This document shows positions 1,085 to 31,823 of a stretch of 32,000 nucleotides of DNA, in pieces (position 1 is the stretch's first letter; every line of letters starts with the position of its first letter). The notes under the pieces are model-generated. The model saw only the letters and a list, made by a program, of their open reading frames with translations. It searched no databases and had not been told where the DNA came from. The position numbers were made by a program, and so were the translations under genes. Source of the stretch: an uncultured Erysipelotrichaceae bacterium (GTDB lineage Bacteria; Bacillota_I; Bacilli_A; Erysipelotrichales; Erysipelotrichaceae); NCBI GenBank assembly GCA_942493105.1, contig OW818668.1:210001-242000 (forward strand), read 5' to 3'.

Positions 1085-1100
1085 TTAAACAATGATACAG

Positions 1101-4279: not shown

Positions 4280-4343
4280 GATTTTATCTTAAAAACAAGA
4301 AGAAACTTAGATATCCTACATGACTTACATTAGCATCATTTAA

Positions 4344-4697: not shown

Positions 4698-5173
4698 ATA
4701 TTACCCCTTTCATTGAGTCGTTATACTTTTAATAAAATAAATCCAAATAGATTCAAGATTTGATCAATTGCTTTATATGCAGCTGAACAAACGGACGCTT
4801 TATTTCAAACAAAGATATCACTCAAATTGGTTTATATTCAAAAATGCCTCAGAAATATAATTAGGAGTACCATGTGTCATCGATAAATTTCCACGGCTTT
4901 GATAATCGGTCAAATATTTTCTTCGTAATTCGCATAAATTTTCCTCTTTTAAACATCTTATCATTGTTTTACAAAAACTGATTTAAATGTATTAATTTTA
5001 ATCTAAAAAACAACTTTTAGAATGACTTTATATATCACAATGGCATCTTCTGTAGGATTTGCTTATCATAAGTCAGTCTAATTTAATGATATTCAAAGAT
5101 AAAATAATGGAGTAAGTATAACCTTGTTTTAGGCTTATAATTTAAATATGTTGGGTCTAAATTTGGCCCAAAA

Positions 5174-6370: not shown

Positions 6371-6372
6371 TG

Positions 6373-6393
6373 AAGCACTTCGGTGCTTTTTTA
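6373..6393 (+). terminator. Rho-independent terminator
   Basis: AAGCAC-ttcg-GTGCTT followed by TTTTTAT, directly after the stop codon. Confidence 0.75.
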
Positions 6394-6520
6394 TTGGGTT
6401 GCCTTGTGATTATTTTTTAACTGGGATGAGTTCTATGAATATAGACTACAATGCATTTATCATGTGAATCCATATGATATGATGAATCATATCTAGTGAA
6501 ATTAACGGATTAGAATTCAC

Positions 6521-6542
6521 ATTGATCGTTTTATCGATCAAT
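6521..6542 (+). promoter_or_regulatory. 8-bp inverted repeat just upstream of the hydrolase RBS (possible operator)
   Basis: ATTGATCG-ttttat-CGATCAAT lies immediately 5' of AAAAGGGG-N6-ATG. Confidence 0.3.
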
Positions 6543-6555
6543 AAAAGGGGCACTC

Positions 6556-7371: not shown

Positions 7372-7383
7372 CTTGAATATAAT

Positions 7384-7432
7384 AAAAAGTCTTTAATTAA
7401 ATGTTTGATCTTACATTTAATTAAAGACTTTT
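7384..7432. terminator. Bidirectional terminator between convergent genes
   Basis: ~20-bp stem AAAAAGTCTTTAATTAAATGT / ACATTTAATTAAAGACTTTTTT with A/T runs on both sides. Confidence 0.75.
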
Positions 7433-7518
7433 TTGACTCCAATATGATCCTAATACCTTACATGCAAACAATCTTGTCATAAAGACTTGAGACTTCACTT
7501 TTAAACATATACACAGCA

Positions 7519-8718: not shown

Positions 8719-8734
8719 AGATTTCCTTCTTAAG

Positions 8735-8757
8735 AAAAAGGGCAATTATATATGCCC
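8735..8757 (-). terminator. Hairpin plus U-tract on the minus strand (terminator of the upstream operon or leader attenuator)
   Basis: The minus strand reads GGGCA-tatataat-TGCCC followed by TTTTTCTT. It ends 17 nt before the aminotransferase ATG. Confidence 0.5.
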
Positions 8758-8874
8758 ACTTTAACTTTATCATGACTTTCTAACAGGAGTAATAATATTT
8801 GCAGAATCTTTGATGGTATTCAAAGAGTTTTAATTTCCATAAAAACTTCAATTTTTCGATTAACTTAAATTAAT

Positions 8875-9630
8875 TTAAACCTCAATAAGATGATGAACTT
8901 GGTATTGTTCAACCAATTTTCCTTTATAAGAAATCGCGTTAACAGGACAATTATGAATGCATCTCGTACACATGATACATTTATTTGAATACTGCTTTGC
9001 TTTAAAATCAATATTGTTTTTCGGACAGTTTCTTTCACATTTTCCACATCCGATACAGTTGTCATTGATGTTAAAGTTCTTGCCTAAAGATTTTGCCATC
9101 AAACGAAAAACATCAGCCAAGAGATCCATCATCACGACGGATTGATCAATTTCTATAGGTTCACTCAAATCAACTTTATTGACTGAATCGTTAATAAGGT
9201 TTGCTGCTTTCTCAAACTGACGAATTTGTTGATCCTCTGGGGTTGGATCATACTTATCAATATAAAAATTGCGAGGCATTTCGAAAGTAGGCATAGCAAT
9301 GACATGATAACCCTTTTTGATGAGCTTCTTACCCATCGATACTACCCCATTGGCATTCTGCAGTCCTGCTGAACTGGTGAAGACAATGGCTTTTTTATTT
9401 GACACATTACGTTTAACATATTTTCTAATCCAGATGATAAGTTCATCCGGTACATTCCCTGCATAAATTGGACCACCGATAATCAAGAGATCATGGTCAG
9501 GAATTTCCTTTAATTTCTCTATAGATTGGTAAAGAACTTCATGACCATTCTTTTTTAGAACATGTTCATATCCCAAAGCGATGGCCTGTGTGTTACCCGT
9601 TCCACTAAAATAAGTTATGATTATTTTCAT
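8875..9630 (-). CDS. Flavodoxin-like domain fused to a 4Fe-4S dicluster ferredoxin domain
   Basis: N-terminus MKIIITYFSGTGNT (flavodoxin-type), C-terminus CIGCGKCERNCP and CIMCTRCIHNCP. ATG 9630 has a GAAGGAAAA RBS and forms an ATGA overlap with the MarR stop. Confidence 0.8.
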   Translation of the reverse strand: MKIIITYFSGTGNTQAIALGYEHVLKKNGHEVLYQSIEKLKEIPDHDLLIIGGPIYAGNVPDELIIWIRKYVKRNVSNKKAIVFTSSAGLQNANGVVSMGKKLIKKGYHVIAMPTFEMPRNFYIDKYDPTPEDQQIRQFEKAANLINDSVNKVDLSEPIEIDQSVVMMDLLADVFRLMAKSLGKNFNINDNCIGCGKCERNCPKNNIDFKAKQYSNKCIMCTRCIHNCPVNAISYKGKLVEQYQVHHLIEV

Positions 9631-10043
9631 AAATTTTCCTTCAGATTCTTTTGAATCATAAATAATGTGTCTACAGTGCAATTGATTTCACTAGGGCCAA
9701 TCGAATGTGTCATAAGGATATTCACATTACTGAACGATGCCCCAATTTGTGCTTTAAGTTGGTGACCTAGATCAGAAAGTTGATAAGTTCTATTTTCTAT
9801 GTTGGGTGTCAAGTAGCCTTTGGCTACTAACTTAACAATACTGCGGCTAATGTTTGCTTTATCAACTTCCAGTGCTTTAACAAGTTCATTTTGAGACAAT
9901 GGTTTTTTAAGACTAAAAAAGATCATCAAGATTTGTAACTGCCCCATTCCAATCTCATATTTCTTGAGATCCTTTTCTACCTTGATTTTCAAATACTTAT
10001 AAACAATGATAAGCAGATTTCCTAATTGGTTGGATTCGATCAT
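9627..10043 (-). CDS. MarR-family transcriptional regulator
   Basis: 138 aa with a winged-helix pattern (LSQNELVKALEVDKANISRSIVKLVAKGYL). First gene of a two-gene operon preceded by paired palindromes. Confidence 0.7.
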   Translation of the reverse strand: MIESNQLGNLLIIVYKYLKIKVEKDLKKYEIGMGQLQILMIFFSLKKPLSQNELVKALEVDKANISRSIVKLVAKGYLTPNIENRTYQLSDLGHQLKAQIGASFSNVNILMTHSIGPSEINCTVDTLFMIQKNLKENL

Positions 10044-10075
10044 GATTTTTCCTTTTCAATTTGATCAATGATTGA

Positions 10076-10130
10076 TTGTTGTGCACACAACAAAAGTATT
10101 TTAGCATAAAATCGTTGTGTGCACAACAAT
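10076..10130 (-). promoter_or_regulatory. Promoter bracketed by two inverted copies of a 15-18 bp operator-like sequence
   Basis: TTGTTGTGCACACAACAA (10076-10093) and its inverted copy TTGTGTGCACAACAA (10113-10130) flank the promoter. The minus strand reads TTGTGC-17 nt-TAAAAT (-10 at 10098-10103, -35 at 10121-10126). Confidence 0.5.
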
Positions 10131-10146
10131 TTTAATATTTATTATC

Positions 10147-10225
10147 GATCTGAGTGTGGTATGGCCCTTGTTCTATAGAGTCAGTAAGACTCTCGTATAT
10201 GAATATTCAATTCTTTTGATCACAC
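10147..10225. repeat. Module M copy 1 (dispersed intergenic repeat related to the array junctions)
   Basis: Aligns by eye with 11451-11520, 13153-13240 and 15291-15353. Shared blocks are ggYccttgtt..tagag..ctc.tatatg.ata..caattcttttga. Confidence 0.6.
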
Positions 10226-10363
10226 TGTTTTATGTATCGATTGAGATACTTGATAAATCTTGATAATCTAACAATAATATTGATATATTGACATCATTTT
10301 TCAAAATACATTCTAAAAAAATCTGGTGATTTAGATCTGTTCTTTTATATCATATGTAAACCC

Positions 10364-10831
10364 TTAATCCCAAAGACTACAACAACCTAAATCATCTAAA
10401 CCATATTCCCCACATTTTGGACAAGAATATTTTTTAAAGTCTAATTGTTTTCCTTCAAAGGATTCAGGTATGGGAATATCATCAAATAAGCGATCTAATT
10501 TCACTTTACAATGAGGGCATTTATATTCGGTAACATACATTCCTTCATCATGATGCAATCTTACGTAAAAACGATTAAATAATTCGAGACATTTGTGACA
10601 TCTAAAAATTTCATGACCAAAGTTATCAAAGTCAGATGAATCAACTGACGCATGTTTCTCTTTAATCAAAGTTTTAATCTCAACTCGCATTTTTTGTGAG
10701 CGAAACAATGAAGATAGTAATGCTTCATTTGTTTCATGATTAAGTAAAGAACCATATATCATCCCAATTCCTAAGACAAAGTCTTTTGAATAACCACATT
10801 TAGTACAATGAACTTGAAAACTGCTTCCCAT
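10364..10831 (-). CDS. Zinc-ribbon protein with four CxxC pairs, function unknown
   Basis: Contains CTKC, CHKC, CPHC and CPKC. AAGGAG RBS. Confidence 0.65.
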   Translation of the reverse strand: MGSSFQVHCTKCGYSKDFVLGIGMIYGSLLNHETNEALLSSLFRSQKMRVEIKTLIKEKHASVDSSDFDNFGHEIFRCHKCLELFNRFYVRLHHDEGMYVTEYKCPHCKVKLDRLFDDIPIPESFEGKQLDFKKYSCPKCGEYGLDDLGCCSLWD

Positions 10832-10957
10832 ATTCAGTCTCCTTTATTTAATAAACAATAATTACATAAATATTCAAATATAGAATTATATCGCTTTTAT
10901 AAATGAGGTTTGATGATGTTACTGCAATTGGTATGGATATTGTTTTCTCAACAATCA

Positions 10958-10994
10958 TTAGCCTTACAACACTACATAAGTCGACTTATTCCAA
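10958..10994 (-). repeat. Module T, solitary copy outside the main array
   Basis: The minus strand reads TTTGGAATAAGTCGACTTATGTAGTGTTGTAAGG, about 10 nt after the stop of the 11005-11421 gene. It matches the T consensus TTGGAAYAGGTCGACTTTTGTAGAGG. Confidence 0.6.
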
Positions 10995-11004
10995 AGAAAA
11001 CACA

Positions 11005-11421
11005 TTATCTTATTTTCTTTTGTTTCCAAGCCACAATAAAATACATCAAAGATAAAACAATACTACCCCCAAGATAGACAAACATCATATACTTTCCATA
11101 AAATGAGGAGTCACCTTGAACACCTTGAAGTTTTAGGCCGATGGCTCCTGAAACATAGGCAATGGAAATAATAGCCAAAACATACGGTGCTAAGGTTTTA
11201 TTCTTTTTGAGGATCAATATATACAATAAGCCTGTCAAAATATTTGAAATCCCAAAGGCACCCAACATCATAAGTCCATCTGGATTAGACTCCATTTGAG
11301 CGAAAGTCGCATTGGCCCAATTGATATTGAAGGTATGTAAGAAACCACGGACCAAATCGAGGACTGCTAAACCCCAAAGATAAATGATATTAAATCTAAG
11401 TACTTTTTCTTGCGTAAACAT
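11005..11421 (-). CDS. Small integral membrane protein (about 4 TM helices)
   Basis: Hydrophobicity pattern and AAGGAG RBS. No family recognised. Confidence 0.6.
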   Translation of the reverse strand: MFTQEKVLRFNIIYLWGLAVLDLVRGFLHTFNINWANATFAQMESNPDGLMMLGAFGISNILTGLLYILILKKNKTLAPYVLAIISIAYVSGAIGLKLQGVQGDSSFYGKYMMFVYLGGSIVLSLMYFIVAWKQKKIR

Positions 11422-11450
11422 AAAGTGCTCCTTTGATCATTATTATAACT

Positions 11451-11520
11451 TGGAATTGTCCTAACTTTGTAGAGTCGTTGCATCATTCAGATATGTATAC
11501 TAAACTCATTTGTTTGTACT
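11451..11520. repeat. Module M copy 2 (more diverged)
   Basis: gtcctaactttgtagagtc...cagatatgtatac aligns with the other M copies. Confidence 0.4.
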
Positions 11521-11665
11521 AATATGATATCTTATAAGGAGACTTCGATTTTCTTACAATACTCCATTTATTAGCAGCAAAATAATATGTTAGAAATCAT
11601 TTTACTTTTTGTTTTCAAACGATAAGTCTACACTGAAAATATATTTATATGAACAGGAAACAAAG

Positions 11666-12256
11666 ATGAAAAACAAACAACAGATTCTTAATCAAGATAG
11701 ACAGGCGTTCATTAACCCACCAAAAAGGATCAACTTCTTTTTAAGAATCGGGATTGGAATCTCAAGAAAAGTCACCGGTAAAGATCTGCTCGTCCCTAAA
11801 CTGCTTGCTTGGGTCCCTAAAGTAGCACTTAGCTCTGGGATACTTGAGTCATTGATCGCTCATGGTGACAAGGATTTAAACACTCGTATGTTAAAACTGG
11901 TCAGAATCCAGGCTTCATTGACGGTTTCTTGCCCATTCTGTATTGATATGAACACTTTTGGATACCAAAAAGATGATATTACTGACGAAGAAATTGAAGT
12001 ACTTAGGGGAAGAAAATCAGTTACTGAGGTTAATTCATTCAGTGAAAAGGAATTGATTGTACTCGATTATGTCAAGCATTTATGTGCCAGTCCCATTAAT
12101 ATGCCAAATGAAGTCTCAACTCGATTAATTCAAAACTTTTCAGAACGAGAGATCGTAATTTTGGCCAGCACAGTTGCACAGGTCGACTACTGGGCAAGAT
12201 TGATACAGGGTCTTGGTGTTCCCCCTGAAGGTTTCATGGATCAATGTGATCTCTAG
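11666..12256 (+). CDS. Carboxymuconolactone decarboxylase / AhpD-like family protein
   Basis: CPFCIDMN CxxC motif in a helical context. Start set at ATG 11666 (MKNKQQ), preceded by AGGAAA. Confidence 0.6.
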   Translation: MKNKQQILNQDRQAFINPPKRINFFLRIGIGISRKVTGKDLLVPKLLAWVPKVALSSGILESLIAHGDKDLNTRMLKLVRIQASLTVSCPFCIDMNTFGYQKDDITDEEIEVLRGRKSVTEVNSFSEKELIVLDYVKHLCASPINMPNEVSTRLIQNFSEREIVILASTVAQVDYWARLIQGLGVPPEGFMDQCDL

Positions 12257-12494
12257 TCACCTTAAGTCAAATTCAAACCAGCACTTCGATTTTGATCTTC
12301 GTCTTCAAAATAATAAGACATGATAAAATTCAGAAATAACTAAATATACTCCTTCTTGCGTAGGGTTAGCTTATTCCTTAACTATACAAAGTCAGAATTG
12401 ATTTCATGACTTTACTACAACCTTAATTATCCAGTTCTCAAACTCACTCGAATATTCTTCATCAGTATTGGATCCTATATGAATTCTTAAAACT

Positions 12495-13257: not shown

Positions 13258-13384
13258 TTATAACTCAGCACGGTCTTAGTGTTCGCTTTACACGAAGCAT
13301 TCCTCATAGTCTAGTGTGAACACTTGAGCATACGCAAACGATTCCCATGGTCGTCCGTTTAAGACCGTAGTAAGCGTTGTCTTT
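13258..13384 (-). repeat. H foldback repeat copy 1 (most diverged; left edge of the array)
   Basis: Reads agcacggtctt...gctttacacgaagc...cccatggtcgtccgtttaagaccgtagt. The central hairpin carries a compensated pair (GCTT/AAGC). Confidence 0.8.
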
Positions 13385-14024: not shown

Positions 14025-14095
14025 GTTACCACCTTTCATTAACTGTCTTATTGAATTTTATTCGACTCTCTCTACAACCACTGAAGTCCAGTTCT
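14025..14095 (-). repeat. Leader module A copy 1 (shared 5'UTR with RBS)
   Basis: Near-identical to 24249-24320. Conservation continues through ATGAAAAAAGTA, the first four codons. Confidence 0.8.
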
Positions 14096-14212
14096 CAGAA
14101 CTCACCACGGTCTTCGTATTCGCTCCAGGTGGAGCATTCCCTCTGACCGAGTAACAACATATTAGCTCTCGTAAATGAGTCCCACGGTCATCCGTTTAAG
14201 ACCGTGGTCAGA
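14096..14212 (-). repeat. H foldback repeat copy 2 (core subtype II)
   Basis: Reads cagaactcaccacggtcttcgtattcgctccaggtggagcattcc...cccacggtcatccgtttaagaccgtggtcag. The central core is gaccgagtaacaacatattag instead of ctagtatgaacgcttaggcac. Confidence 0.9.
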
Positions 14213-14320
14213 GGCGATGTACTCATGCAACTTGGACATTGCGACTCGACTAGAGTTGGCCTATTCCGGGTAACCTTGAATTTACTCAGAAATTCAAATA
14301 TCTCTGAACGTACTAAGTAT

Positions 14321-15433: not shown

Positions 15434-15535
15434 ATTCACTCTGTCAATCCGGAACACTTAGGGAAGCGTTCTGTATGGACGAGTATCAACTTAAGGGCTG
15501 GGTGAGTTCGTGTCTTTCGTGATGACTGGACATGC
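15434..15535 (-). repeat. Decayed H repeat (subtype II-like)
   Basis: aagcgttctgtatggacgagtatcaac...cgtgatgactgg is collinear with copy 3 (gagcgttcatcgtgaccgagtaacaat...ccgtggtatg). The arms are no longer complementary. Confidence 0.35.
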
Positions 15536-15936: not shown

Positions 15937-16000
15937 AAACCGGTAGCCATAGAACACGAACATATACTCTCGTTGTTAGCGACATATTATCTTGAGTTCT

Positions 16001-16117
16001 TAGAACTCACCACAGCCTTTATATTCGCTCCAAGTTGAGCGTTCATCGTGACCGAGTAACAATATATTAGTTCTAGTAATCGAGTCATACGGTCGTCCGT
16101 TTAGGACCGTGGTATGA
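16001..16117 (-). repeat. H foldback repeat copy 3 (core subtype II, diverged arms)
   Basis: tagaactcaccacagcctttatattcgctccaagttgagcgttc...catacggtcgtccgtttaggaccgtggtatg. Confidence 0.85.
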
Positions 16118-16635: not shown

Positions 16636-16701
16636 GATCTGAGTTGTCTTGTACTCATACAACTTTAGCATTGTGGCTCTACAGAAGACGACTTATACCA
16701 A
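16636..16701 (-). repeat. Module T copy with only the last few nt of H attached (H-less junction remnant)
   Basis: gatctgag + ttgtcttgtactcatacaactttagcattgtggctctacagaagacgacttataccaa parallels 31760-31823 but lacks the body of H. Confidence 0.6.
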
Positions 16702-17305: not shown

Positions 17306-17351
17306 CTCATACAACTTAACATTGTGTCTATACAAAAGTCGACCTATTCCA
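17306..17351 (-). repeat. Module T copy
   Basis: ctcatacaacttaacattgtgtctatacaaaagtcgacctattcca. Confidence 0.75.
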
Positions 17352-18402: not shown

Positions 18403-18459
18403 TTGTTCCAAAACAGAATAGAGTTTTAAGCTCGACAACAACCCTATATATTCAGTTCT
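18403..18459 (-). repeat. Leader module C copy 1
   Basis: The minus strand reads GAACTGAATATATAGGGTTGTTGTCGAGCTTAAAACTCTATTCTGTTTTGGAACAA. It matches 28022-28078. Confidence 0.7.
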
Positions 18460-18566
18460 TAGAACTCACCACAGTCTTCGTATTCGCTCCAGGTGGAGCA
18501 TTCACCACATTCTAGTATGAACGCTTAGGCACCCAATCGTGTCCCACGGTCGTCCGCTTAAGACCT
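18460..18566 (-). repeat. H foldback repeat copy 4 (3' arm truncated/decayed)
   Basis: tagaactcaccacagtcttcgtattcgctccaggtggagcattc...ttaggcacccaatcgtgtcccacggtcgtccgcttaagacct. Confidence 0.85.
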
Positions 18567-18577
18567 TGTTTTAAGTG

Positions 18578-18625
18578 CTCATTCAAGGTTAACATTGTGC
18601 CTCTACAAAAGTCGACCTATTCCAA
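18578..18625 (-). repeat. Module T copy
   Basis: ctcattcaaggttaacattgtgcctctacaaaagtcgacctattccaa, 38 nt after the stop of the FRG gene. Confidence 0.8.
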
Positions 18626-19693: not shown

Positions 19694-19775
19694 ACTTAAA
19701 CAAGTTTATCATTTCGACTCCATAATAGTCGATTTATTCCAATATTGCGTTTCATCAAAAGCTAACTTATTCCAA
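19694..19775 (-). repeat. Module T copy plus a second partial T start abutting the HNH gene stop
   Basis: One copy is tcatttcgactccataatagtcgatttattccaa (19694-19742). A partial copy, ctaacttattccaa (19761-19775), sits 3 nt from the stop at 19779. Confidence 0.6.
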
Positions 19776-19778: not shown

Positions 19779-21269
19779 TTAACTTGTTTTTCTATATCTT
19801 CTTCTAACTAAACCTCTAGTTTTGATTTCATTTACTAAAGTCATAGGACTCATACCAAAGGATTTTGCTACTTGTAAGATTGACAATTCTGATGACATAT
19901 ATGATTCAACTGCCTCACTATATTTTTCTATTAAGAGAACATTCCTTTTCTTGTCAACCTTATGCGGTCTATAAATCTGTCTATTTAGACCTTTCTTTTT
20001 TAGTTCACTACTTAGTAAGTTCTCGCTAATATGATGTTGCTTTGAAACTTCACTTCTTGAGAGTCTAGTTGACATGTAATGCTGAATTGCTGCTTCAAGT
20101 CTAATTGCCTTATCCTCTTTATTAATCTCTATTGTCTTAGGTTTGTCTACTCTAATTTTGGTGTTAATAGCTTCAGGATATTTCTTTCGTACATAGTTAT
20201 ATACAGTAGCAAAGCTTACTCCAAACTCTTCAGCAACTTCCTTATAAGATTTTGAAGAGCTCACATAGCTAAAAGCCACATTTTCAATGAATTTCTCATC
20301 TCGTACTCTTTTGTTTCTTTCACTATAAACAAACTTATTATTATCTTGATCTTTCACAGTTTCAACTTGAGAGGATTGGAATGAATCATCTTCTCGGTCT
20401 GTTAGATTATCTATTTCTTCGCTCTTATTAAGTTGGCTTTTCTTTACACTATTAAATACAGTTACACTGCTTATTCCAAACTCCTTCCCTACTTGCTCAT
20501 ATGTTAATGATGAATTCAAATATCTTTGTTTTGCGGATTCAATTACAGATTCATCTATAAAATTTGGTCTACCTAACTTCTTTCCATTCTTCTTAAGTTC
20601 ATTTAGTGAGTCTGATGTTCTATTTGAAATATTACTTCTCTCAAGTTCTGCAATAATATTAATAAAATGATTCACTATGTCCTGAACAATATCATAATTT
20701 ATTCTTTCCATAGTATTTACAGAATCAGTTTTCCATTTAAATAATCTTTTGTAGAACATTCTTAACAAACCTGCTGTAGTTGAGATGCTAACATGTGTAT
20801 GCCCAAAATGGAATATTAACTCAAGGTCACCAAAGAATTCATCTATTGATTGATATACTTTATCGACTTGATTTGGCGATAAACTCAAAGAATATATATC
20901 GTCAACAAACTCATTTCCATAAATTCTTTTATACTCGTCCAACCCTTTGTATGTCCAAAAATTATCTCTTCTCTTGCTACTGTATGCATTTATCCAATCC
21001 CACATTATTTCGTTATCTTTAACATCAGGGGCTTCAATATGACAAGATTTACATAACAGTACATAGTTGCTTGGGATATCTAGTCCTCCCATAGCAAAAG
21101 GTATAATATGACATTTCTGAATTTTGCGATGTTTTGTAGACACTTCTCCACATCTCCAACAATGACTACTTGCTTTGGCAATCTCAAGATGCGTGTATAG
21201 CCACTCTATTTTATCAGTCCAATATGAACTAATGTAAACCTCAGTTGTTTTTTGATTATTTCTTTTCAC
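19779..21269 (-). CDS. HNH endonuclease fused to a resolvase-like linker and four helix-turn-helix repeats
   Basis: The HNH core is CWRCG..CHIIPFAMGG..NYVLLCKSCH. It is followed by ELERSNISNRTSDSLNELKKNGKKLGRP (serine-recombinase helix-E/GRP-linker-like) and four HTH units (LTYEQVGKEFGISSVTVFN, KSYKEVAEEFGVSFATVYN, LSRSEVSKQHHISENLL, LSILQVAKSFGMSPMTLVN). Start moved to GTG 21269, 5 nt after AAAGGGGGA, because the track start at 21344 lies inside repeat H. Confidence 0.8.
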   Translation of the reverse strand: MKRNNQKTTEVYISSYWTDKIEWLYTHLEIAKASSHCWRCGEVSTKHRKIQKCHIIPFAMGGLDIPSNYVLLCKSCHIEAPDVKDNEIMWDWINAYSSKRRDNFWTYKGLDEYKRIYGNEFVDDIYSLSLSPNQVDKVYQSIDEFFGDLELIFHFGHTHVSISTTAGLLRMFYKRLFKWKTDSVNTMERINYDIVQDIVNHFINIIAELERSNISNRTSDSLNELKKNGKKLGRPNFIDESVIESAKQRYLNSSLTYEQVGKEFGISSVTVFNSVKKSQLNKSEEIDNLTDREDDSFQSSQVETVKDQDNNKFVYSERNKRVRDEKFIENVAFSYVSSSKSYKEVAEEFGVSFATVYNYVRKKYPEAINTKIRVDKPKTIEINKEDKAIRLEAAIQHYMSTRLSRSEVSKQHHISENLLSSELKKKGLNRQIYRPHKVDKKRNVLLIEKYSEAVESYMSSELSILQVAKSFGMSPMTLVNEIKTRGLVRRRYRKTS

Positions 21270-21295
21270 AATATCCCCCTTTATGTCTCTAGTTA

Positions 21296-21412
21296 CATAA
21301 CGCACCACGGTCTTTGTATTCGCTCCAGGTGGAGCATTCCCCATAGTCTAGTATGAACGCTTAGGCACACCCCATCGTGTCTCACGGTCGTCCGTTTAAG
21401 ACCGTAGTCAGC
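21296..21412 (-). repeat. H foldback repeat copy 5 (L-linked)
   Basis: cataacgcaccacggtctttgtattcgctccaggtggagcattcc...ctcacggtcgtccgtttaagaccgtagtcagcg. Confidence 0.9.
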
Positions 21413-21847
21413 GTGGTCTTTTCTCAGTCAAACTGCTCTTGTTATTCAACTTTCAACATCATTCTATCTCATTCATTCTACCCTATTTTAAAGCTATATA
21501 TATCACTAATTATGTGTTCATTTTCTTATTATTTCGGTTCTCTTTTAAAAAGAAATCTCAAAATCCGTTACACTTTTGTTACACTTGGACAAAGTGACCT
21601 GCAAAAAAGCCTTATAGAATAAGGCTTCGTGAAGTCATGGTGCCATCACCGAGAGCAGAATTTATGCGTATTTTTAGGTGTCAGTTATGATAAAAGGCTT
21701 AAAAAACAAGCCTTTTAGTCGATTTTTATCGAATTAAGTGTGATTAAATCGGAATTATATAGGTAATCCGTTACACATTTGTTACACTTCGATGTGATCA
21801 AACTGTCCACCAACAATCGTCTGCAAAGGGACTTCATTTTTCTTAAC
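21413..21847 (-). repeat. Module L copy 2, long form (two GTTACAC boxes 203 bp apart) plus T-like tail
   Basis: Near-identical to 24990-25440. Boxes are at 21562-21586 and 21765-21789, with internal hairpins at about 21606-21630 and 21693-21717. Confidence 0.85.
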
Positions 21848-22342
21848 TTACCTCATTCTTTTGCGTTTCACTTTATCGACTTGATAAAATAGTGAAATCA
21901 GAAAAATGGCATATGAAATTCCAATCAATGGTCGAAACACAAACCATCCGGTGATTATCCATAAACTAGAAAAAATCACAGTTGCTAAAAACCCAAGTGC
22001 GAATCCCCAGTATGGAAGTAACAGATTTAACGGAACAATCCCCAGCTTATCAAGGTAAAACATTCTCCATTTTCTTTCTCCTCTTTTCTTATAGTTCTCT
22101 TTATCGTGTTTTCTCAGATATTTTGAAATTAGTGGAAAGTATAGTGTGTGTCCTCCTACATAATGAATTACTGGAAACGCAATAATGAGCATTATTATTA
22201 TGAAAAATTCTTCTAGGCTCATCATCTTACTGTTACCACGCTTTCTGATTAAGTTCAAAGTCAAATGATATTGGTCTGCTTCGACTTTTATGGAGAGGTT
22301 TTGTCCCCACCCATCACTATTCCCATTATCCCTATTAATCAT
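21848..22342 (-). CDS. Small membrane protein, about 3 TM (cassette ORF; start uncertain)
   Basis: The track start at 22342 lies in module B (MINRDNGN...). An alternative start, ATG 22225 (MMSLEEFF), lies just before the first TM helix. Confidence 0.6.
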   Translation of the reverse strand: MINRDNGNSDGWGQNLSIKVEADQYHLTLNLIRKRGNSKMMSLEEFFIIIMLIIAFPVIHYVGGHTLYFPLISKYLRKHDKENYKKRGERKWRMFYLDKLGIVPLNLLLPYWGFALGFLATVIFSSLWIITGWFVFRPLIGISYAIFLISLFYQVDKVKRKRMR

Positions 22343-22372
22343 CCGTTAGTCTACCTGCAATTCATCTATTGC
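22321..22372 (-). repeat. Module B copy 1
   Basis: Minus strand: GCAATAGATGAATTGCAGGTAGACTAACGGATGATTAATAGGGATAATGGGA. Confidence 0.7.
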
Positions 22373-22489
22373 CAGAACTCACCACGGTCTTCGTATTCGC
22401 TCCACATGGAGCATTCCCCACAGTCTAATATGAACGCTTAGGCACTGCCAATCGTGTCCCCAGTCGGCCATTTAAGACCGTGGTCTGAG
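22373..22489 (-). repeat. H foldback repeat copy 6
   Basis: cagaactcaccacggtcttcgtattcgctccacatggagcattcc...ccccagtcggccatttaagaccgtggtctgag. Confidence 0.9.
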
Positions 22490-22574
22490 TCAACATTACC
22501 TCAAGAAATCAAGTCTCTCAACTTGACATTATGAAGTCACTAATAATTTCATAACATTTTCTTTTTCTCATGTT

Positions 22575-23312: not shown

Positions 23313-23430
23313 AATTCCCCTCCTCTTTCACCCAGTAATGATCGGTTTTGGTTTGCTTAATACCTAAATAGTAAGTTGGTCTGTTCCAACTTTTGTGGGG
23401 ATCTTTCGGATGATCTTGATTATTATTCCC

Positions 23431-23478
23431 ATTATCCCTTTTCTTCATCTATTAGTCTACCTTCAATTCATCTAATCT
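23431..23478 (-). repeat. Module B copy 2
   Basis: Minus strand: AGATTAGATGAATTGAAGGTAGACTAATAGATGAAGAAAAGGGATAATGGGA. Confidence 0.8.
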
Positions 23479-23597
23479 CAGAACGCACCACGGTCTTCGT
23501 TTTCGCTTCATGTGGAGCATTCTCCGCACATCTAGTATGAACGCTTAGGCACTATCAATCGTGTCCCACGGTGAGTTTGCCAAGACCGTGGTCTGAG
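23479..23597 (-). repeat. H foldback repeat copy 7 (loop allele GAGTTTGCCA)
   Basis: cagaacgcaccacggtcttcgttttcgcttcatgtggagcattc...cccacggtgagtttgccaagaccgtggtctgag. Confidence 0.9.
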
Positions 23598-23633
23598 TCC
23601 GGATTGTTATGCGTATTCAACTGAAGATCTAGA

Positions 23634-24248: not shown

Positions 24249-24320
24249 GTTACCACCCTTTCATTAAATGTCTTATCGAGTTTTATTCGACTCTCCCTAC
24301 AACCACTGCTGTTCTATTCA
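24249..24320 (-). repeat. Leader module A copy 2
   Basis: Minus strand: TGAATAGAACAGCAGTGGTTGTAGGGAGAGTCGAATAAAACTCGATAAGACATTTAATGAAAGGGTGGTAAC, followed by ATGAAAAAAGTA. Confidence 0.8.
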
Positions 24321-24439
24321 CAGAACGCACCACGGTCTTCATATTCGCTCCATGTGGAGCATTCCCCACAAGCTAGTATGAAATGCTTAGGCACAGGTAA
24401 TCGTGTCACACGGTGAGTTTGCCAAGACCGTGGTCTGAG
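24321..24439 (-). repeat. H foldback repeat copy 8
   Basis: cagaacgcaccacggtcttcatattcgctccatgtggagcattcc...cacacggtgagtttgccaagaccgtggtctgag. Confidence 0.9.
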
Positions 24440-24503
24440 TTAGTGTTATCTGAAGATCCAATAAAGTCTTGGACTTCACTTTTCTCTTCACCCCAAAAAC
24501 TAT

Positions 24504-24761: not shown

Positions 24762-24822
24762 AATTTATGACCCCTAACTTTCACTTTCTTGTTCAAGGAG
24801 TAAATCTTCATCAACGCTATCC

Positions 24823-24872
24823 TCATTATCCCTTTTCTATACCGGTTAGTCTACCATCAACTCAACTAATCA
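24823..24872 (-). repeat. Module B copy 3 (first ATG replaced by ATA)
   Basis: Minus strand: TGATTAGTTGAGTTGATGGTAGACTAACCGGTATAGAAAAGGGATAATGAGG. Confidence 0.7.
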
Positions 24873-24989
24873 CAGTACGCACCACGGTCTTCGTATTCGC
24901 TCCATGTGGAGCATTCCCACTCATCTAGTATTAACGCTTAGGCACATGCTATCGTGTCCCACGGTCGACTATTTAAGACCGTGGTCAGC
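24873..24989 (-). repeat. H foldback repeat copy 9 (L-linked)
   Basis: cagtacgcaccacggtcttcgtattcgctccatgtggagcattcc...cccacggtcgactatttaagaccgtggtcagcg. Confidence 0.9.
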
Positions 24990-25440
24990 GTTGTCTTTTC
25001 TCAGTCAAACTGCTCTCGTTATTCAACTTTCATCATCATTCTGTCTCATTCATTCTACCCTATTTTAGAGCTATATATATCACTAATTTAGTGTTCATTT
25101 TCTTATTATTTAGGTTCTCTTTTAAAAAGAAATCTCAAAATCCGTTACACTTTTGTTACACTTGGACAAAGTGACCTGCAAAAAAGCCTTATAGAATAAG
25201 GCTTCGTGAAGTCATGGTGCCATCACCGAGAGCAGAATTTATGCGTATATTTAGGTGTCAGTTATGATAAAAGGCTTAAAAAACAAGCCTTTTAGTCGAT
25301 TTTTATCGAATTAAGTGTGATTAAATCGGAATAAAATAGGAAATCCGTTACACATTTGTTACACTTTGGAATTGGCTATTTCTACCACTATGACATGCTC
25401 AAAGGATCATCGCATTTTCTCAATACACCACAGTTCGTAA
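24990..25440 (-). repeat. Module L copy 3, long form
   Basis: Boxes at 25139-25163 and 25342-25366, 203 bp apart. The sequence after the second box (ttggaattggctatttctaccactat) matches the flank of the single box at 13550-13575. Confidence 0.85.
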
Positions 25441-26057: not shown

Positions 26058-26312
26058 AAATCCACCATATCTTCATTATAAACACAAAGGAATCTCAATA
26101 AGTTGTGACTTTGTGTAAATAGAGTAAAAACACCTGTTAAGATGCTTCAGAATGCGCTGGGTTGATTGGATAATGAGATTTGAATTGATCCTTTCTTGAC
26201 ATTACAAGATCTTCGAGTTCCAAACAAATCCTCCATAGACTTCTATATTTATCTTGTTTCAAGGCTTATCTAGTCAAAATATTACAAAGGATCATATCAA
26301 TAAACCAGTTCT

Positions 26313-26430
26313 CAGAACGCACCACGGTCTTCGTATTCGCTCCAGGTGGAGCATTCTCGTTACACTAGTATGAACGCTTAGGCACACCCAATCGTGTCCC
26401 ACGGTCGTCCGTTTAAGACCGTGGTCTGCG
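26313..26430 (-). repeat. H foldback repeat copy 10 (close to consensus)
   Basis: cagaacgcaccacggtcttcgtattcgctccaggtggagcattctcgttacactagtatgaacgcttaggcacacccaatcgtgtcccacggtcgtccgtttaagaccgtggtctgcg. Confidence 0.95.
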
Positions 26431-26486
26431 TCAATATTCAACGAAAGTATTAGGAATATCTTATGTAACCACTTCCATTTAGTCAT

Positions 26487-26861
26487 TCACTTAAAAATAT
26501 TGTTTAATATACTTATAATCCTTGACTCAAACAATTTGATTAGTAGTAGATATATAAAAGATATGTACATACCTATGGTATTATCAAATTCAATCATAAA
26601 AAATTTCAGTACAAAAATAGTTAATATGGTCATTATGATGACTAAAATGCACAATGCAAACCCCATCCATTGAGGAACAACTTTTCTGAAAAAAGCTAGA
26701 AATCCACTTAATAACATTGATATCAATAACGATATTGATCCAAGAGTATAATTTAATCCAAGGTCCACATTAGAAAATACAAAAAAATAGAAAGCTAAAC
26801 CCAAAGCTAAAACCATTAAGATAGTTAGTATTAATTCAAATTTCGTTAATTTTTCTTTCAT
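26487..26861 (-). CDS. Small membrane protein, about 4 TM, 124 aa (cassette ORF)
   Basis: Hydrophobicity pattern. AGGA lies 8 nt upstream of the ATG. Confidence 0.6.
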   Translation of the reverse strand: MKEKLTKFELILTILMVLALGLAFYFFVFSNVDLGLNYTLGSISLLISMLLSGFLAFFRKVVPQWMGFALCILVIIMTILTIFVLKFFMIEFDNTIGMYISFIYLLLIKLFESRIISILNNIFK

Positions 26862-26922
26862 GATAATTATCCTATCTGGCCTTCCCCCATTACTTATTCC
26901 AAATCAGTATTAACTCTTTAAT

Positions 26923-27003
26923 CTCATTATCCCTTTTCTTCATCCGTTAGTCTACCTTCAATGCGATCATTTAGAGGCTCTACTATAAACAACCGCAGTC
27001 CAA
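26923..27003 (-). repeat. H-less junction: module B copy 4 fused directly to a T-like module
   Basis: ctcattatcccttttcttcatccgttagtctaccttcaatgcgatcat (B) is followed by ggctctactataaacaaccgcagtccaa (T-like), ending 3 nt from the stop at 27007. Confidence 0.6.
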
Positions 27004-27174: not shown

Positions 27175-27261
27175 AATCATATCCTCCTGTTCATTCAAAT
27201 TGTACCGTTTATCCTCCATGTTTACTACACAAAACAGTGATTTTTGTTGCCTATTTAAGAA

Positions 27262-27586
27262 TGTTTTTTATAAATCCGTTACACTTTTGTTACACTTGGA
27301 CAAAGTTACCTGCAAAAAAGCCTTATAGAATAAGGCTTCGTGAAGTCATGGTGCCATCACCGAGAGCAGAATTTACGCGTATTTTTAGGTGTCAATTATG
27401 ATAAAAGGTTTAAAAAACAAGCCTTTTAGTCGATTTTTATCGAATTAAGTGTGATTAAAACTAAATAAAACAGGAAATCCGTTACACATTTGTTACACTT
27501 CGATGTGATCAAATTATCTATCAATAATCTTCCGCAAAGAGACTTCTCTCTTCTCAATACACTCCTGTCCCAACTAAAAAATAACC
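27262..27586 (-). repeat. Module L copy 4, partial: only the box-203 bp-box unit plus T-like tail, with no H and no left arm
   Basis: Boxes at 27273-27297 and 27476-27500. The interior differs from the other two copies at only a handful of scattered positions plus a more variable stretch just before the second box. The right flank resembles that of the 21.8-kb copy. Confidence 0.8.
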
Positions 27587-28021: not shown

Positions 28022-28078
28022 TTGTTCCAAAACACAATTGATTGTTTAACTCGACAACAACCCTTAATATCCAGTTCT
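28022..28078 (-). repeat. Leader module C copy 2
   Basis: Minus strand: GAACTGGATATTAAGGGTTGTTGTCGAGTTAAACAATCAATTGTGTTTTGGAACAA. Confidence 0.7.
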
Positions 28079-28196
28079 CAGAACTCACCACGGTCTTCGT
28101 ATTCGCTCCAGGAGGAGCATTCTCCACACTCTAGTATGAACGCTTAGGCACATGCAATCGTGTCCCACGATGAGTTTACCTAGACCGTGGTCTGCG
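28079..28196 (-). repeat. H foldback repeat copy 11 (sister of copy 12)
   Basis: Shares private variants with copy 12: ccaggaggagc loop, catgcaatcg, cccacgat, gtctgcgtca. Confidence 0.95.
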
Positions 28197-28203: not shown

Positions 28204-28251
28204 ATTCATGCAGTCTAAATATCGTGTCATTACGGAAGTCGACCTATTCCA
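28204..28251 (-). repeat. Module T copy overlapping the 3' end of a CDS
   Basis: attcatgcagtctaaatatcgtgtcattacggaagtcgacctattcca. GGAATAGGTCGACTT encodes the C-terminal G-I-G-R-L of the 28230-28538 ORF. Confidence 0.8.
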
Positions 28252-28538
28252 CCATTCTTCTTAACATATTTCTCGATCTTTTTCATTTCTTTAATTGAAA
28301 TCTGTCTACCGCATTTTGGACACAAGAACTCGGTCCATATAAACTTAACATCTCCAAACATGTATCCATCTCCTCCTACAGAACTAAAATCGTACTCTTT
28401 TGCCTCTGGAGATTTGGAATTTACTATCTTGGAAACCTTAGTTTTGAATAATAAAGAATGACAGTCAGGGCAGTAATGCTTCTTACAGTTGACATAAAAT
28501 GGATTTTTCCATGTTCTCACGATGCTTTTAAATTTCAT
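28230..28538 (-). CDS. Zinc-ribbon small protein, 102 aa (cassette ORF)
   Basis: Contains CPDC and CPKC pairs. Start moved to ATG 28538 (MKFKSIV), 5 nt after GGAG, because the track start at 28646 lies inside repeat H. Confidence 0.65.
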   Translation of the reverse strand: MKFKSIVRTWKNPFYVNCKKHYCPDCHSLLFKTKVSKIVNSKSPEAKEYDFSSVGGDGYMFGDVKFIWTEFLCPKCGRQISIKEMKKIEKYVKKNGGIGRLP

Positions 28539-28597
28539 AATTGCTCCAAAGTTTACTCTTTTTCGTTGTTTCCCATAAACCACTACACTTCCATTCT

Positions 28598-28715
28598 TAG
28601 AACGCACCACGGTCTTCGTATTCGCTCCAGGAGGAGCATTCTCCACACTCTAGTATGAACGCTTAGGCACATGCAATCGTGTCCCACGATGAGTTTGCCA
28701 AGACCGTGGTCTGCG
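28598..28715 (-). repeat. H foldback repeat copy 12 (sister of copy 11)
   Basis: I count four differences from copy 11 over ~118 nt. Confidence 0.95.
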
Positions 28716-28756: not shown

Positions 28757-29233
28757 TTATAACAATTTGATTGATTCGGATAATCTATGAACAAGCTTAT
28801 CAGGGAAAGCATAGTTCTTATGCCATGCCATTTGGTACATAGAGCCAGGATAATCTGAATTTAGTTGATTCAATGCTCGAAGTATTGCTCTAGCAAATCT
28901 GATTTGGGAAACGTTCCCTTGATAAAGAACCTCTTTATCAAAAGTCATCGTTCTTTCGTTATATAGGGAATAGATTACACTGATTGACACTTCCAGGTTC
29001 TCTTCGGAAATAGTCCATTGTACCTCTCCAGGTTCATTCATCCAAACAAAAGATCTTTCCTTTGAGCCTTCGCACATTAAGACAATAGCTATTGTAAAAT
29101 CGTATATAGCATCCGTTAAATAGGAAGAAGTTATTACTGTCTCTTTATCCACATCCTGTATTGTCATATCAAGCCAGCCATTTTGTATTGATATCTTGCT
29201 TATTGTGAATTGATTGTTCATTAACCCCATCAT
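28757..29233 (-). CDS. Hypothetical cytoplasmic protein, 158 aa (cassette ORF)
   Basis: Uninterrupted ORF. The start lies at the edge of module B copy 5 (AAAAGGGATGATGGGG). No family recognised. Confidence 0.55.
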   Translation of the reverse strand: MMGLMNNQFTISKISIQNGWLDMTIQDVDKETVITSSYLTDAIYDFTIAIVLMCEGSKERSFVWMNEPGEVQWTISEENLEVSISVIYSLYNERTMTFDKEVLYQGNVSQIRFARAILRALNQLNSDYPGSMYQMAWHKNYAFPDKLVHRLSESIKLL

Positions 29234-29265
29234 CCCTTTTCTACATCCATTAGTTTACCTAGTAT
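29226..29265 (-). repeat. Module B copy 5 (solitary, diverged)
   Basis: Minus strand: CTAGGTAAACTAATGGATGTAGAAAAGGGATGATGGGG. There is no H or T in this 63-nt junction. Confidence 0.5.
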
Positions 29266-30727: not shown

Positions 30728-30807
30728 CTTGACCCCCATTAAGTTATGTTACTTAAGATAGTTTGTCCTTTACAAAGCACCTATAATGCAGCTTGACTCT
30801 TGATTTC

Positions 30808-30854
30808 ATTATCCCTTTTCTTCATCTATTAGTTTACTTCAATTCATCTAATCC
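30808..30854 (-). repeat. Module B copy 6
   Basis: Minus strand: GGATTAGATGAATTGAAGTAAACTAATAGATGAAGAAAAGGGATAATGAAA. It opens a 14-codon ORF, MKKRDNEIKSQAAL. Confidence 0.8.
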
Positions 30855-30971
30855 CAGAACTCACCACGGTCTTCGTATTCGCTCCATATGGAGCATTCCC
30901 CACAATCTAGTATGAACGCTTAGGCACACCCAATCGTGTCCCACAGTGAGTTTGCCAAGACCGTGGTCTGC
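30855..30971 (-). repeat. H foldback repeat copy 13
   Basis: cagaactcaccacggtcttcgtattcgctccatatggagcattcc...cccacagtgagtttgccaagaccgtggtctgc. Confidence 0.9.
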
Positions 30972-30998
30972 ATCGCAATCTAAAACCAGTATTTCTGT

Positions 30999-31628
30999 TT
31001 ACTTGTACTGATTTGATTTTTCCTCATATTCTGTTGCTTTAACCAGATCCCCTAAACGTTTATAAAACAAGGATTCGAATTTGTAGCCAAATCGTTTAAT
31101 ATCATCATAATCATATTCTGTGATGATTTTCTCAATCATCTCTATACTCCAGGTCAAAACTTCAGTGGTTGCATCGCTATCTTGTTGGATCAAAGTAAAA
31201 GGAGCTAGTATACTTAAATAATCTGAAGAGGCTATGAGTAATTTATATCGCATCTCAAATGCTTCCTTAAATTCGGAAATTTGATCTAATTGATAAAGTG
31301 CAAAAAGGTATTCAATATAGAAAATCTCATAGTCTTGTTCTGTCATGTTAGTTGGTTTGTTTTCTATTGCTAAATAATAGTATTTTGCTTTTTCTTTATA
31401 TTGACCTTCAACCTTAAGCAGAGATTTTATGAGGTTTACCAAACTGTTATCAGAATGGTAAAAATCATATTCTCGTTCATACCATATAACCGCTTCGCTA
31501 TAATTACTCCTAGATACATAAAAGTCTCCAATTTGTCTTGAAAAAACATTTAAACTGAGACCTAGAACTATCGTTAATCCAATAGCAGAGGCAAATATAA
31601 TCAACAGAACTTTTATTGGCTTTTTCAT
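30999..31628 (-). CDS. Membrane-anchored helical-repeat protein, 209 aa (cassette ORF)
   Basis: N-terminal TM anchor (VLLIIFASAIGLTIVLGLSL), then Y/E/K-rich helical repeats (TPR-like impression only). GGAAAGGGGA RBS. Confidence 0.65.
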   Translation of the reverse strand: MKKPIKVLLIIFASAIGLTIVLGLSLNVFSRQIGDFYVSRSNYSEAVIWYEREYDFYHSDNSLVNLIKSLLKVEGQYKEKAKYYYLAIENKPTNMTEQDYEIFYIEYLFALYQLDQISEFKEAFEMRYKLLIASSDYLSILAPFTLIQQDSDATTEVLTWSIEMIEKIITEYDYDDIKRFGYKFESLFYKRLGDLVKATEYEEKSNQYK

Positions 31629-31648
31629 TCTATCCCCTTTCCATTAGT

Positions 31649-31767
31649 TAGAGCGCACCACGGTCTTCGTATCCGCTCCAGGTGGAGCATTCTCCACACT
31701 CGAGTATGAATGCTTAGGCACAGCCAATCGTATCCCACGGTGAGTTTGCCAAGACCGTGGTCTGAGT
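31649..31767 (-). repeat. H foldback repeat copy 14
   Basis: tagagcgcaccacggtcttcgtatccgctccaggtggagcattc...cccacggtgagtttgccaagaccgtggtctgag. Confidence 0.9.
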
Positions 31768-31774: not shown

Positions 31775-31823
31775 GGCTCATACTACTTTAACATTTCGAA
31801 TCTGCAAAAATCGACCTGTTCCA
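31775..31823 (-). repeat. Module T copy
   Basis: ctcatactactttaacatttcgaatctgcaaaaatcgacctgttcca, ending 3 nt from the stop at 31827. Confidence 0.8.

Follow-up and report, generated by a model that had tools for sequence, protein, structure and literature searches.

The DNA analysed here, referred to as the window, is a stretch of 32,000 nt from an uncultured Erysipelotrichaceae bacterium (contig OW818668.1, positions 210,001-242,000; assembly GCA_942493105.1). It harbours an island of accessory genes that are single, short and co-oriented, nearly all of them without a Pfam match, and that lie between copies of a GC-rich interspersed repeat approximately 118 bp in length, here termed H. The arm motif of this repeat, AAGACCGTGGT, is found 27 times in the window when up to one mismatch is allowed, compared with 0.24 occurrences expected by chance. 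These motifs pair into 14 full copies of H, in which the arm starts are spaced 92-95 nt apart and which can be aligned over approximately 120 nt. Most of the copies in the window are positioned, in the gene sense, 26-107 nt past the stop codon of the upstream gene. In the case of copy 10, on which this report is centred, the reverse complement begins on the gene-sense (minus) strand 56 nt past the stop codon of the open reading frame (ORF) at 26487-26861. The full copies, located with nhmmer, and one remnant that was read directly are listed below.

13258-13376, minus strand: H copy 1, the most diverged copy; allele A
14093-14213, minus strand: H copy 2, with the alternative core; allele A
15998-16117, minus strand: H copy 3, with the alternative core; allele A
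18457-18575, minus strand: H copy 4
21295-21413, minus strand: H copy 5, in the gene sense immediately downstream of a tRNA-3'-end repeat and module M
22371-22490, minus strand: H copy 6
23476-23598, minus strand: H copy 7; allele B
24318-24440, minus strand: H copy 8; allele B
24871-24990, minus strand: H copy 9, in the gene sense immediately downstream of a tRNA-3'-end repeat and module M
26313-26430, minus strand: H copy 10, the focal copy (nhmmer match 26310-26430, E=3.9e-39)
28076-28196, minus strand: H copy 11; allele B
28595-28715, minus strand: H copy 12; allele B
30854-30971, minus strand: H copy 13; allele B
31647-31767, minus strand: H copy 14; allele B; with copy 13 it flanks a cassette shared, at 94.7% DNA identity, by contig WSYG01000011 of a metagenome-assembled genome (MAG)
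12431-12460, minus strand: H remnant at the array's distal end, a left part that has lost an internal segment

An earlier note on this DNA had set out a consensus for H that comprised two arms, a third, direct occurrence of CCACGGT and the palindrome GCTCC-N4-GGAGC. Every one of these elements is present in the alignment of the 14 copies, and the bounds it gave for the focal copy were right. The parts of this copy are arranged as follows.

26321-26331: 5' arm, ACCACGGTCTT, first motif copy, direct; paired with the 3' arm in 93.2% of alignment cells
26339-26352: P2, GCTCC-AGGT-GGAGC, palindrome or hairpin of 14 bp, hypervariable in its central 4 nt; 98.9% paired
26365-26385: conserved core, CTAGTATGAACGCTTAGGCAC, swapped for GACCGAGTAACAAYATATTAG in the copies at 14093 and 15998
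26383-26396: P4, CAC...GTG, a 3-bp helix with a variable loop
26399-26405: internal CCACGGT, second motif copy, direct, followed by a 12-nt spacer
26415-26425: 3' arm, AAGACCGTGGT, third motif copy, inverted

The arms are complementary at 11 of 11 bases, as had been claimed, and beyond them lies an additional outer CAG/CTG pairing across a 5-nt bulge, which had not previously been described. The alignment also bears out that the 3' arm is complementary to the internal CCACGGT situated 12 nt upstream, the two pairings being mutually exclusive. The intervening spacer comprises the segment that distinguishes alleles A and B (26406-26414) and AAG, the first three bases of the 3' arm. As reported, the stem of P2 is kept while its loop varies: AGGT, ACAT, ATGT, AGGA and ATAT were all seen again, and further copies add ACAC, AAGT, AGGC, AGAT and TGGT. 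The compensated stem attributed to copy 1 reads GCTTT-ACAC-GAAGC, consisting of one C-G to T-A double change and one T-G pair. Similarly, the CAC/GTG of P4 is replaced by CTC/GAG in copy 2 and by TTC/GAG in copy 3, the shared central A-T to T-A change being counted as a single event. The alternative core GACCGAGTAACAAYATATTAG was correctly assigned to these same two copies, but the 'decayed 15434 copy' in which it was also said to occur matches H only weakly (nhmmer E=0.27). Both loop alleles are sorted along the array in the manner described, with A in copies 1-5 and 10 (and variants in copies 6 and 9) and B in copies 7, 8 and 11-14. Conservation ends sharply after ...CTG(A/C)GT, and H has no tRNA-like part.

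tRNA-Thr islands and the distribution of H

Relatives of H were gathered with three types of query. A specific pattern of 23 nt identified seven metagenome contigs carrying the repeat (L120-L126). A looser, palindromic pattern of 18 bases with a variable gap, applied to genome contigs, returned approximately 119 chance matches and only two real ones (L113 and L116), both of which are contigs of the MAG 'Erysipelotrichaceae bacterium X3_MetaBAT.3'. The translated gene-sense strand of H, used as a protein query, returned three clusters, the encoding contigs of which supplied five further loci (L127-L131); with just three such clusters, the H family is rare in public data. No H was found in viral contigs by pattern scan, or in plasmids and phages by BLAST, and no similar repeat was found in multi-immunity or Rhs arrays of other taxa (L132-L138). 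Searches of Rfam 15 gave no match at gathering thresholds, and none on H at E<5.

Among these genome fragments, H is confined to islands of accessory genes, with 54 nhmmer matches in approximately 67 kb of island DNA and none in approximately 41 kb of adjoining housekeeping DNA (window 1-12300, L113 1-5233, L126 1-12100 and others). All 35 of the full copies are oriented opposite to the flanking genes, there being no reversed copy. Target-site duplications were absent at any definition of the repeat boundary, the best giving 3 of 35 copies. The region downstream of the zinc-ribbon gene in L128 was considered as a possible empty site, but holds a decayed H; no other candidate was found.

Three array starts directly follow tRNA-Thr genes, which have the anticodon CGT in L113 and L121 and GGT in L125; the array in the window itself starts further on, past position 32000. 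The tRNA is followed by module M, a conserved segment approximately 160 nt in length and consisting of a terminator hairpin, the doublet GTGTAACAAAAGTGTAAC, possibly representing arm-type integrase sites, and the promoter-like sequence TAGACT-17-GATAAT. In the window, this promoter-like part runs directly into H after approximately 55 nt. Inside arrays module M recurs, each time after the last 17 nt of the tRNA concerned, which in turn have a conserved arm on their upstream side; the repeats D3 and D4 of the window, 300 nt in length, are copies of this module. These features are located as follows.

21424-21637, window: module M
24991-25214, window: module M
27237-27348, window: module M
5234-5390, L113: module M
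21638-21654, minus strand, window: exact repeat of the last 17 nt of tRNA-Thr(GGT), TCTCGGTGATGGCACCA, an att-type core that bounds an accreted unit and is separate from H
25215-25231, minus strand, window: second such tRNA-Thr(GGT) 3'-end repeat, TCTCGGTGATGGCACCA
27349-27365, minus strand, window: third such repeat, TCTCGGTGATGGCACCA

Exact 17-nt repeats of the tRNA-Thr 3' end, with conserved arms on both sides, are also found inside the arrays of L120, L124, L126, L131 and L135, and attR-type distal ends are visible in L126 and L124. Given that arrays start at tRNA-Thr and contain repeats of its end, the islands look like tandem accretions of integrase-less integrative elements, the pattern being the one classically left when site-specific integrations follow one another at a tRNA gene. 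Where both ends of a unit bounded by tRNA repeats can be seen, it contains between one (27349-25232) and four (25215-21655) copies of H, with five more lying beyond the last repeat. The same kind of H is found in islands of both tRNA types. Judged by this arrangement, H is a second repeat nested within the tRNA-bounded units, rather than their att site.

Variation, folding and probable exchange within H

The 35 full copies from the window and related contigs, aligned for tests of structure and variation, have a mean column identity of 80%. Substitutions between them fall in five islands, being strongly clumped (per-column mean 4.3, variance 22.3), and the variable segments are nearly fixed in length: all copies have a P2 loop of 4 nt, and the spacer containing the loop alleles is 12 nt in both of them. 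The G+C content of H is 51%, against 34% for the island. Clearly, H is not a neutrally decaying young repeat. The earlier note had proposed that H would be reduced to such a repeat if no helix had supported covariation and recent copying alone accounted for the conservation. Formally no helix has it, in a test that was nearly powerless because the family is so little diverged, but the description as a young repeat does not fit the clumped variation, fixed lengths and contrast in G+C content.

The proposed helices pair in 91-99% of cells, and the closed structure as a whole in 95.0%. Two-sided changes within this structure affect just 3 pairs (4 cells), compared with 1-4 pairs in controls slid by 1-3 columns. 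The RNAalifold analysis that had been suggested retained the outer stem, P2 and the 3-bp P4; nothing else was kept. Mismatches in the outer stem are divided into 9 G-T cells, 10 A-C cells and 16 others, and the equality of the first two classes means that neither strand is favoured, in agreement with the previous opinion that the functional strand could not be called from the arm substitutions. Predicted folds are more stable than those of shuffled sequences on both strands (z -2.95 to -4.69), with the gene-sense strand folding approximately 3 kcal/mol better on average.

The competing pairings of the 3' arm had led to the suggestion of a two-state conformational switch, in which this arm would pair now with the 5' arm, now with the internal CCACGGT. 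Both pairings are real and mutually exclusive, the local hairpin being paired in 91.4% of cells and coming within 2 kcal/mol of the closed form in 11-15 of the 35 copies when folded as DNA. Folded as RNA, only 3-4 copies come so close. When enforced, the local hairpin is worse than the closed form by an average of 8.2-8.5 kcal/mol as RNA and 3.6-4.6 kcal/mol as DNA; it never appears in single-sequence minimum-energy folds, in which the internal CCACGGT instead pairs elsewhere, and differently in the two loop alleles. Its pairs show no double-sided changes among the 35 copies. The switch is consequently not supported, and is regarded as very improbable. It is plausible that the constraints on the sequence, together with the junctions at the GCTCC/GGAGC hairpin described below, are better accommodated by three putative protein-binding half-sites, a reading suggested by the strand-neutral conservation of the CCACGGT triplet and by a spacer that is fixed in length but free in sequence.

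The flanks of H carry information about only part of the repeat. Similarity between left flanks predicts similarity in the left part of H across the 35 copies (Mantel r=0.24, p=0.0015), but not in the far right part, and similarity between right flanks predicts no part of it in the same test. Four pairs of copies share a left flank and differ in their right parts, and the variable islands are mutually in linkage equilibrium. This mismatch between flanks and interior, along with the linkage equilibrium, indicates that exchange occurs inside H. A single crossover point was rejected, as a linkage scan found short-range decay throughout and no lone breakpoint.

A more specific position is suggested by partial copies. 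Five independent half-copies, three solo left and two solo right, all break within approximately 6 nt of the P2 loop, approximately 40 nt from one end of H:

2433-2468, L121: solo left half
3866-3895, L121: solo left half
9108-9144, L121: solo left half, of the same sequence as L124 9787-9823
3041-3120, L121: solo right half, the same event as L127 3142-3228
1954-2037, L122: solo right half

Were breakage random along the 118 nt, the probability of five such breaks would be roughly (16/118)^5, or ~5e-5. Two truncated copies break elsewhere: L113b is without the entire 5' arm, the break falling at the inner edge of the arm, while L120b keeps the last three arm bases and is broken inside the arm. 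An insertion of an ORF into the P2 loop of a single H was also considered for L121, but comparison with L127 reveals a half-copy upstream that is fused to a diverged module M, and a separate deletion downstream.

Possible roles of H

The interpretation tentatively favoured here, at a little under an even chance, is that H is a DNA-level cassette-junction or recombination module in the tRNA-Thr-anchored islands of an Erysipelotrichaceae-like Firmicute, similar to the repeats of integrons and of the Bacteroidales arrays discussed below but a member of neither group. It is based on the combination of conserved spacers with variable genes, the restriction of H to islands, its fixed orientation, the exchange inside it and the junction hotspot at the 14-bp palindrome. 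H would then be a substrate for the exchange of genes between arrays, with exchange occurring inside the repeat and preferably at the GCTCC-N4-GGAGC of P2. A protein provided in trans would bind at the three copies of CCACGGT, two of them forming an inverted pair with a fixed 12-bp spacer and the third standing alone, 7 bp from P2. Ordinary homologous recombination, acting over a near-invariant block of 37 nt on the left of H, probably contributes to the shuffling, and may do part or all of it.

Several observations weigh against this role. A Pfam search that included Phage_integrase found no tyrosine or serine recombinase in the window or any related locus, and the three array starts seen hold the tRNA and module M, with no recombinase. 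The islands already own a conventional att-type repeat in the tRNA 3' end, so H is not needed for their growth. Linkage decay is short-range everywhere in H, not at P2 alone, and the mosaicism could be explained by general gene conversion. The half-copies amount to only approximately five independent events, four of which involve the contig L121, and could be explained as hairpin-prone deletions. No circular or excised forms were seen, though the data allowed no search for them. Finally, some copies are decaying, as at approximately 15461 in the window (nhmmer E=0.27 at 15461-15491) and approximately 1230-1330 in L128.

A bolder form of the cassette-junction interpretation, which seems unlikely, would make H the equivalent of attC in an undescribed, IntI-independent mode of cassette capture in Firmicutes, located on small integrase-less elements that accumulate at tRNA-Thr genes. 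Strand exchange would take place at P2, a recombinase acting in trans would be positioned by CCACGGT, and the variable centre would set the compatibility of sites. To our knowledge, integron-type gene capture is essentially absent from Firmicutes. If the bolder form were true, the integron principle would have arisen a second time, by convergence, in a phylum said to lack integrons.

[quoted passage not shown] In both, the repeats are more alike within a lineage than the genes are, and cassette content varies between close relatives. It might thus be supposed that H is a canonical attC site and its array a CALIN, since the length of H falls inside the 57-141 bp range of attC, an AAC triplet is found at one end of H and GTT at the other, and conservation comes to a sharp end after ...CTG(A/C)GT. 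CALINs have been reported in Firmicutes, but complete integrons are absent from all Firmicutes and Tenericutes genomes surveyed (PMC4889954). Neither intI nor Phage_integrase was detected in the window or the related loci, and several cassettes of the H arrays have a promoter-like module of their own. With regard to the site itself, neither strand has a complementary 7-bp RYYYAAC/GTTRRRY pair: H has only the triplets AAC or GAC and GTT, beside which the adjoining 4 nt lack complementarity. In a tally by eye, the G/T near the left arm showed no co-variation with the C/A near the right arm, either within a copy (7/14) or across a cassette (5/13). The arms form a perfect 11-bp duplex in most copies, without extrahelical bases, the sole asymmetry being the 5-nt bulge between CAG/CTG and the arms, and the multi-branched fold includes long conserved unpaired blocks. 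Nor is there a sign of a G|TT crossover at the 3' end, by which the entire site would move along with the upstream gene, as the right flank predicts nothing and the half-copies break in mid-H, at P2. A canonical attC site is accordingly extremely unlikely.

The rAID arrays of Bacteroidales (for recombinase-associated acquired interbacterial defence) combine a recombinase with orphan-immunity genes in one common orientation and intergenic repeats like those of integrons (Ross et al. 2019, bioRxiv 10.1101/471110; PMC12247911). By analogy, rAID-1 arrays are the nearest described counterpart of the H arrays: both comprise at least two short genes of ~100-300 codons that share one orientation, with conserved intergenic motifs 'reminiscent of integrons' and low G+C content, and at least one cassette family of the H arrays has relatives in toxin and immunity arrays. 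They differ in that the three H array starts seen consist of a tRNA-Thr gene, with no XerD-like gene, in another phylum. The cassettes of rAID-1 are orphan-immunity genes; for those of the window, Pfam gave no match. Functionally, then, H is by analogy an attC- or rAID-like repeat, but one that departs from both in their defining features. Scattered partial tRNAs within islands have been described for tycheposons (bioRxiv 10.1101/2020.12.28.424599). The H islands resemble these, and the accretion systems of cis-mobilizable elements (CIMEs) and integrative and conjugative elements (ICEs), in starting at tRNA-Thr, containing internal 17-nt tRNA-end repeats with arms and having an attR-type distal end. 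The likeness extends to module M and the tRNA repeat, but not to H, and no integrase is present in the units seen. We know of no counterpart of the nested H in such systems.

Other explanations can be set against the cassette-junction interpretation. H might instead act as RNA. Its reverse complement would be transcribed between cistrons or at the 3' end of the preceding gene, and its closed multi-branch fold would protect, process or insulate the messages of the array in the manner of REP, BOX or ERIC. The strict orientation relative to genes and the position shortly past stop codons are consistent with this, as are the stable folds on both strands, the better folding of the gene-sense strand, the concentration of variation in predicted loops and linkers and the entry of module M's promoter-like part into H. 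However, no helix has supported covariation, G-U-compatible changes are not in excess on the gene-sense strand, Rfam provides no match even at E<5, and the long unpaired blocks are as conserved as the stems. Furthermore, the stem is not followed by a U-tract, a terminator and promoter are already supplied by module M, and such a role leaves unexplained both the absence of H from housekeeping operons and the clustering of junctions at P2; it is considered somewhat doubtful. The REP/BIME, ERIC, BOX, RUP and Correia families share with H an imperfect palindrome of ~100-150 bp, modular alleles, truncated copies, a location after genes and a narrow host range. They are distributed genome-wide and in both orientations, several with target-site duplications, whereas H is confined to islands, has one orientation and generates no duplications. 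Another proposal is that H is a non-autonomous mobile element, either a miniature inverted-repeat transposable element or a palindrome-associated one, inserted strand-specifically between island genes by a transposase encoded elsewhere. In its favour are the terminal 11-bp inverted repeats extending to CAG/CTG, the length of ~118 bp, the narrow host range, the truncated copies and modular alleles, and the IS110 and IS3 transposases found in one of the related loci. Transposons of the single-strand IS200/IS605 type, moreover, make no duplications and are orientation-biased. Against it, duplications are absent (best 3/35) and there is no empty site, the sole candidate in L128 being a decayed H; no copy lies outside the islands or in the opposite orientation, none is in a plasmid or phage record, and no candidate transposase is linked to H, making this proposal improbable.

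H might also be a cluster of operators by which a single regulator governs all the cassettes, in which case the inverted CCACGGT-N12-ACCGTGG would serve as a dimer site ahead of the cassette promoters. The 12-bp spacer, fixed in length and free in sequence, and the strand-independent conservation would suit such a site, and TAGACT-17-GATAAT lies just downstream, in the gene sense, of four H copies in the window (5' arms at 22381, 23487, 24881 and 30863); in the one measured (23487), 27 nt separate the -35 hexamer from the H arm. The promoter module is missing after many H copies and some promoter modules have no H, 118 conserved bp far exceed what an operator needs, and the junction hotspot and reshuffling would go unexplained; regulation of this sort is quite improbable.

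How cassettes are created and moved in arrays without a recombinase, such as CALINs and multi-immunity islands, is an open question, of which the H locus represents a compact and unusually regular case. It offers nested repeats, with tRNA ends between units and H between genes, as well as conserved spacers, variable genes and a junction hotspot that can be mapped. Should H be a recombination site, it would constitute a new class of site and imply a recombinase still to be found; should it be an RNA element, it would be a new structured motif specific to mobile islands.

Cassette genes and other island features

The cassettes of the window have no Pfam match even at E<1. One of them, at 30869-31767, is 94.7% identical at the DNA level to part of L113, where it also lies between H copies but with other neighbours, and the zinc-ribbon gene at 28230-28646 is likewise found between H copies with other neighbours in L128, L129 and L116; few other cassettes are common to different arrays. 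DUF2691, DUF1871 and leucine-rich repeat (LRR) proteins are encoded in related loci. A cassette protein beside an H copy in L126 (ORF167) has homologues in Rhs and Imm44/DUF5071 arrays of other taxa, which suggests a link between the H islands and immunity islands. Homologues of this cassette, 34-35% identical and from gut metagenomes, are present in L132, L133 (1-12300) and L137, their positions being downstream of an Rhs/YD-repeat toxin of 2481 aa and within arrays of 20 genes that also encode Imm44, DUF5071, HEAT and LRR proteins. L133 carries its own, unrelated intergenic repeat of 72 nt.

Among candidates for an enzyme acting on H, the minus-strand gene at 19779-21344 encodes a protein that has an HNH nuclease domain at its N terminus, shows weak similarity over one stretch to the E-helix region of Tn3 resolvase (PDB 5cy1, E=0.07) and contains four helix-turn-helix repeats of the resolvase or transposase type. 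It is absent from all other loci, so a role in binding H is unsupported. L121 ORF202 and the window ORF at 1231-1917 were also considered as recombinases and rejected, both resembling membrane or secreted proteins. In L121, genes for transposases of the IS3 family (rve) and the IS110 family lie between two H arrays (5311-8230).

The gene-sense strand of H has one frame open through the whole repeat, a feature missed previously, and ORF finders consequently call spurious ORFs across H or extend real ORFs into it. This frame was ruled out as a coding sequence, its variation having no codon periodicity. Examples in the window are a 64-aa artefact on the minus strand (26292-26486), which crosses the focal copy, and two real minus-strand genes (28230-28646 and 19779-21344) that are extended at the 5' end by the H-derived peptide ENAPPGANTKTVVR. 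The true start of the second is probably a GTG following the ribosome-binding site AAGGGGGA, rather than the ATG within H. Whatever the function of H, its open frame and the resulting 5' gene extensions mislead gene callers, and annotation artefacts are to be expected in such genomes.

Two further short repeats accompany the cassettes. One, of 45 nt, contains the promoter-like TAGACT-17-GATAAT in the gene sense and lies just upstream of cassette start codons, from which many cassettes seem to own a promoter, unlike typical integron cassettes. The other, of 46 nt (gene-sense TGGAATAGGTCGACTTTTGTAGAG...), directly follows cassette stop codons, in some cases with H after it and in others alone.

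22317-22361, 23423-23467, 24817-24861, 26918-26962, 29221-29265 and 30800-30844, window: 45-nt promoter-like repeat
10948-10993, 14223-14268, 16655-16700, 17306-17351, 18579-18624, 19696-19774, 28206-28251 and 31778-31823, window, and 3970-4010, L127: 46-nt repeat

At the distal end of the window array, a 65-nt leader repeat (within 12376-12460) that recurs in the left flank of H at 18457 and at 28076 is followed by the deleted left-part remnant of H; no tRNA-end repeat was found beside this segment, which adjoins a gene for an HAD hydrolase. Strong terminator-like hairpins, TAAAAGGCTTAAAAAACAAGCCTTTTA with a T-rich tail, are present on the plus strand, opposite to the cassettes, at 21691-21717 and 25268-25294. 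They sit in island DNA just upstream, in the gene sense, of the tRNA-end repeats at 21638 and 25215, and hint at antisense transcription. Elsewhere in the window, three tandem repeats of 357 nt (38-1084), 70-76% identical to one another, lie within an ORF with fibronectin type III and MORN-like matches.

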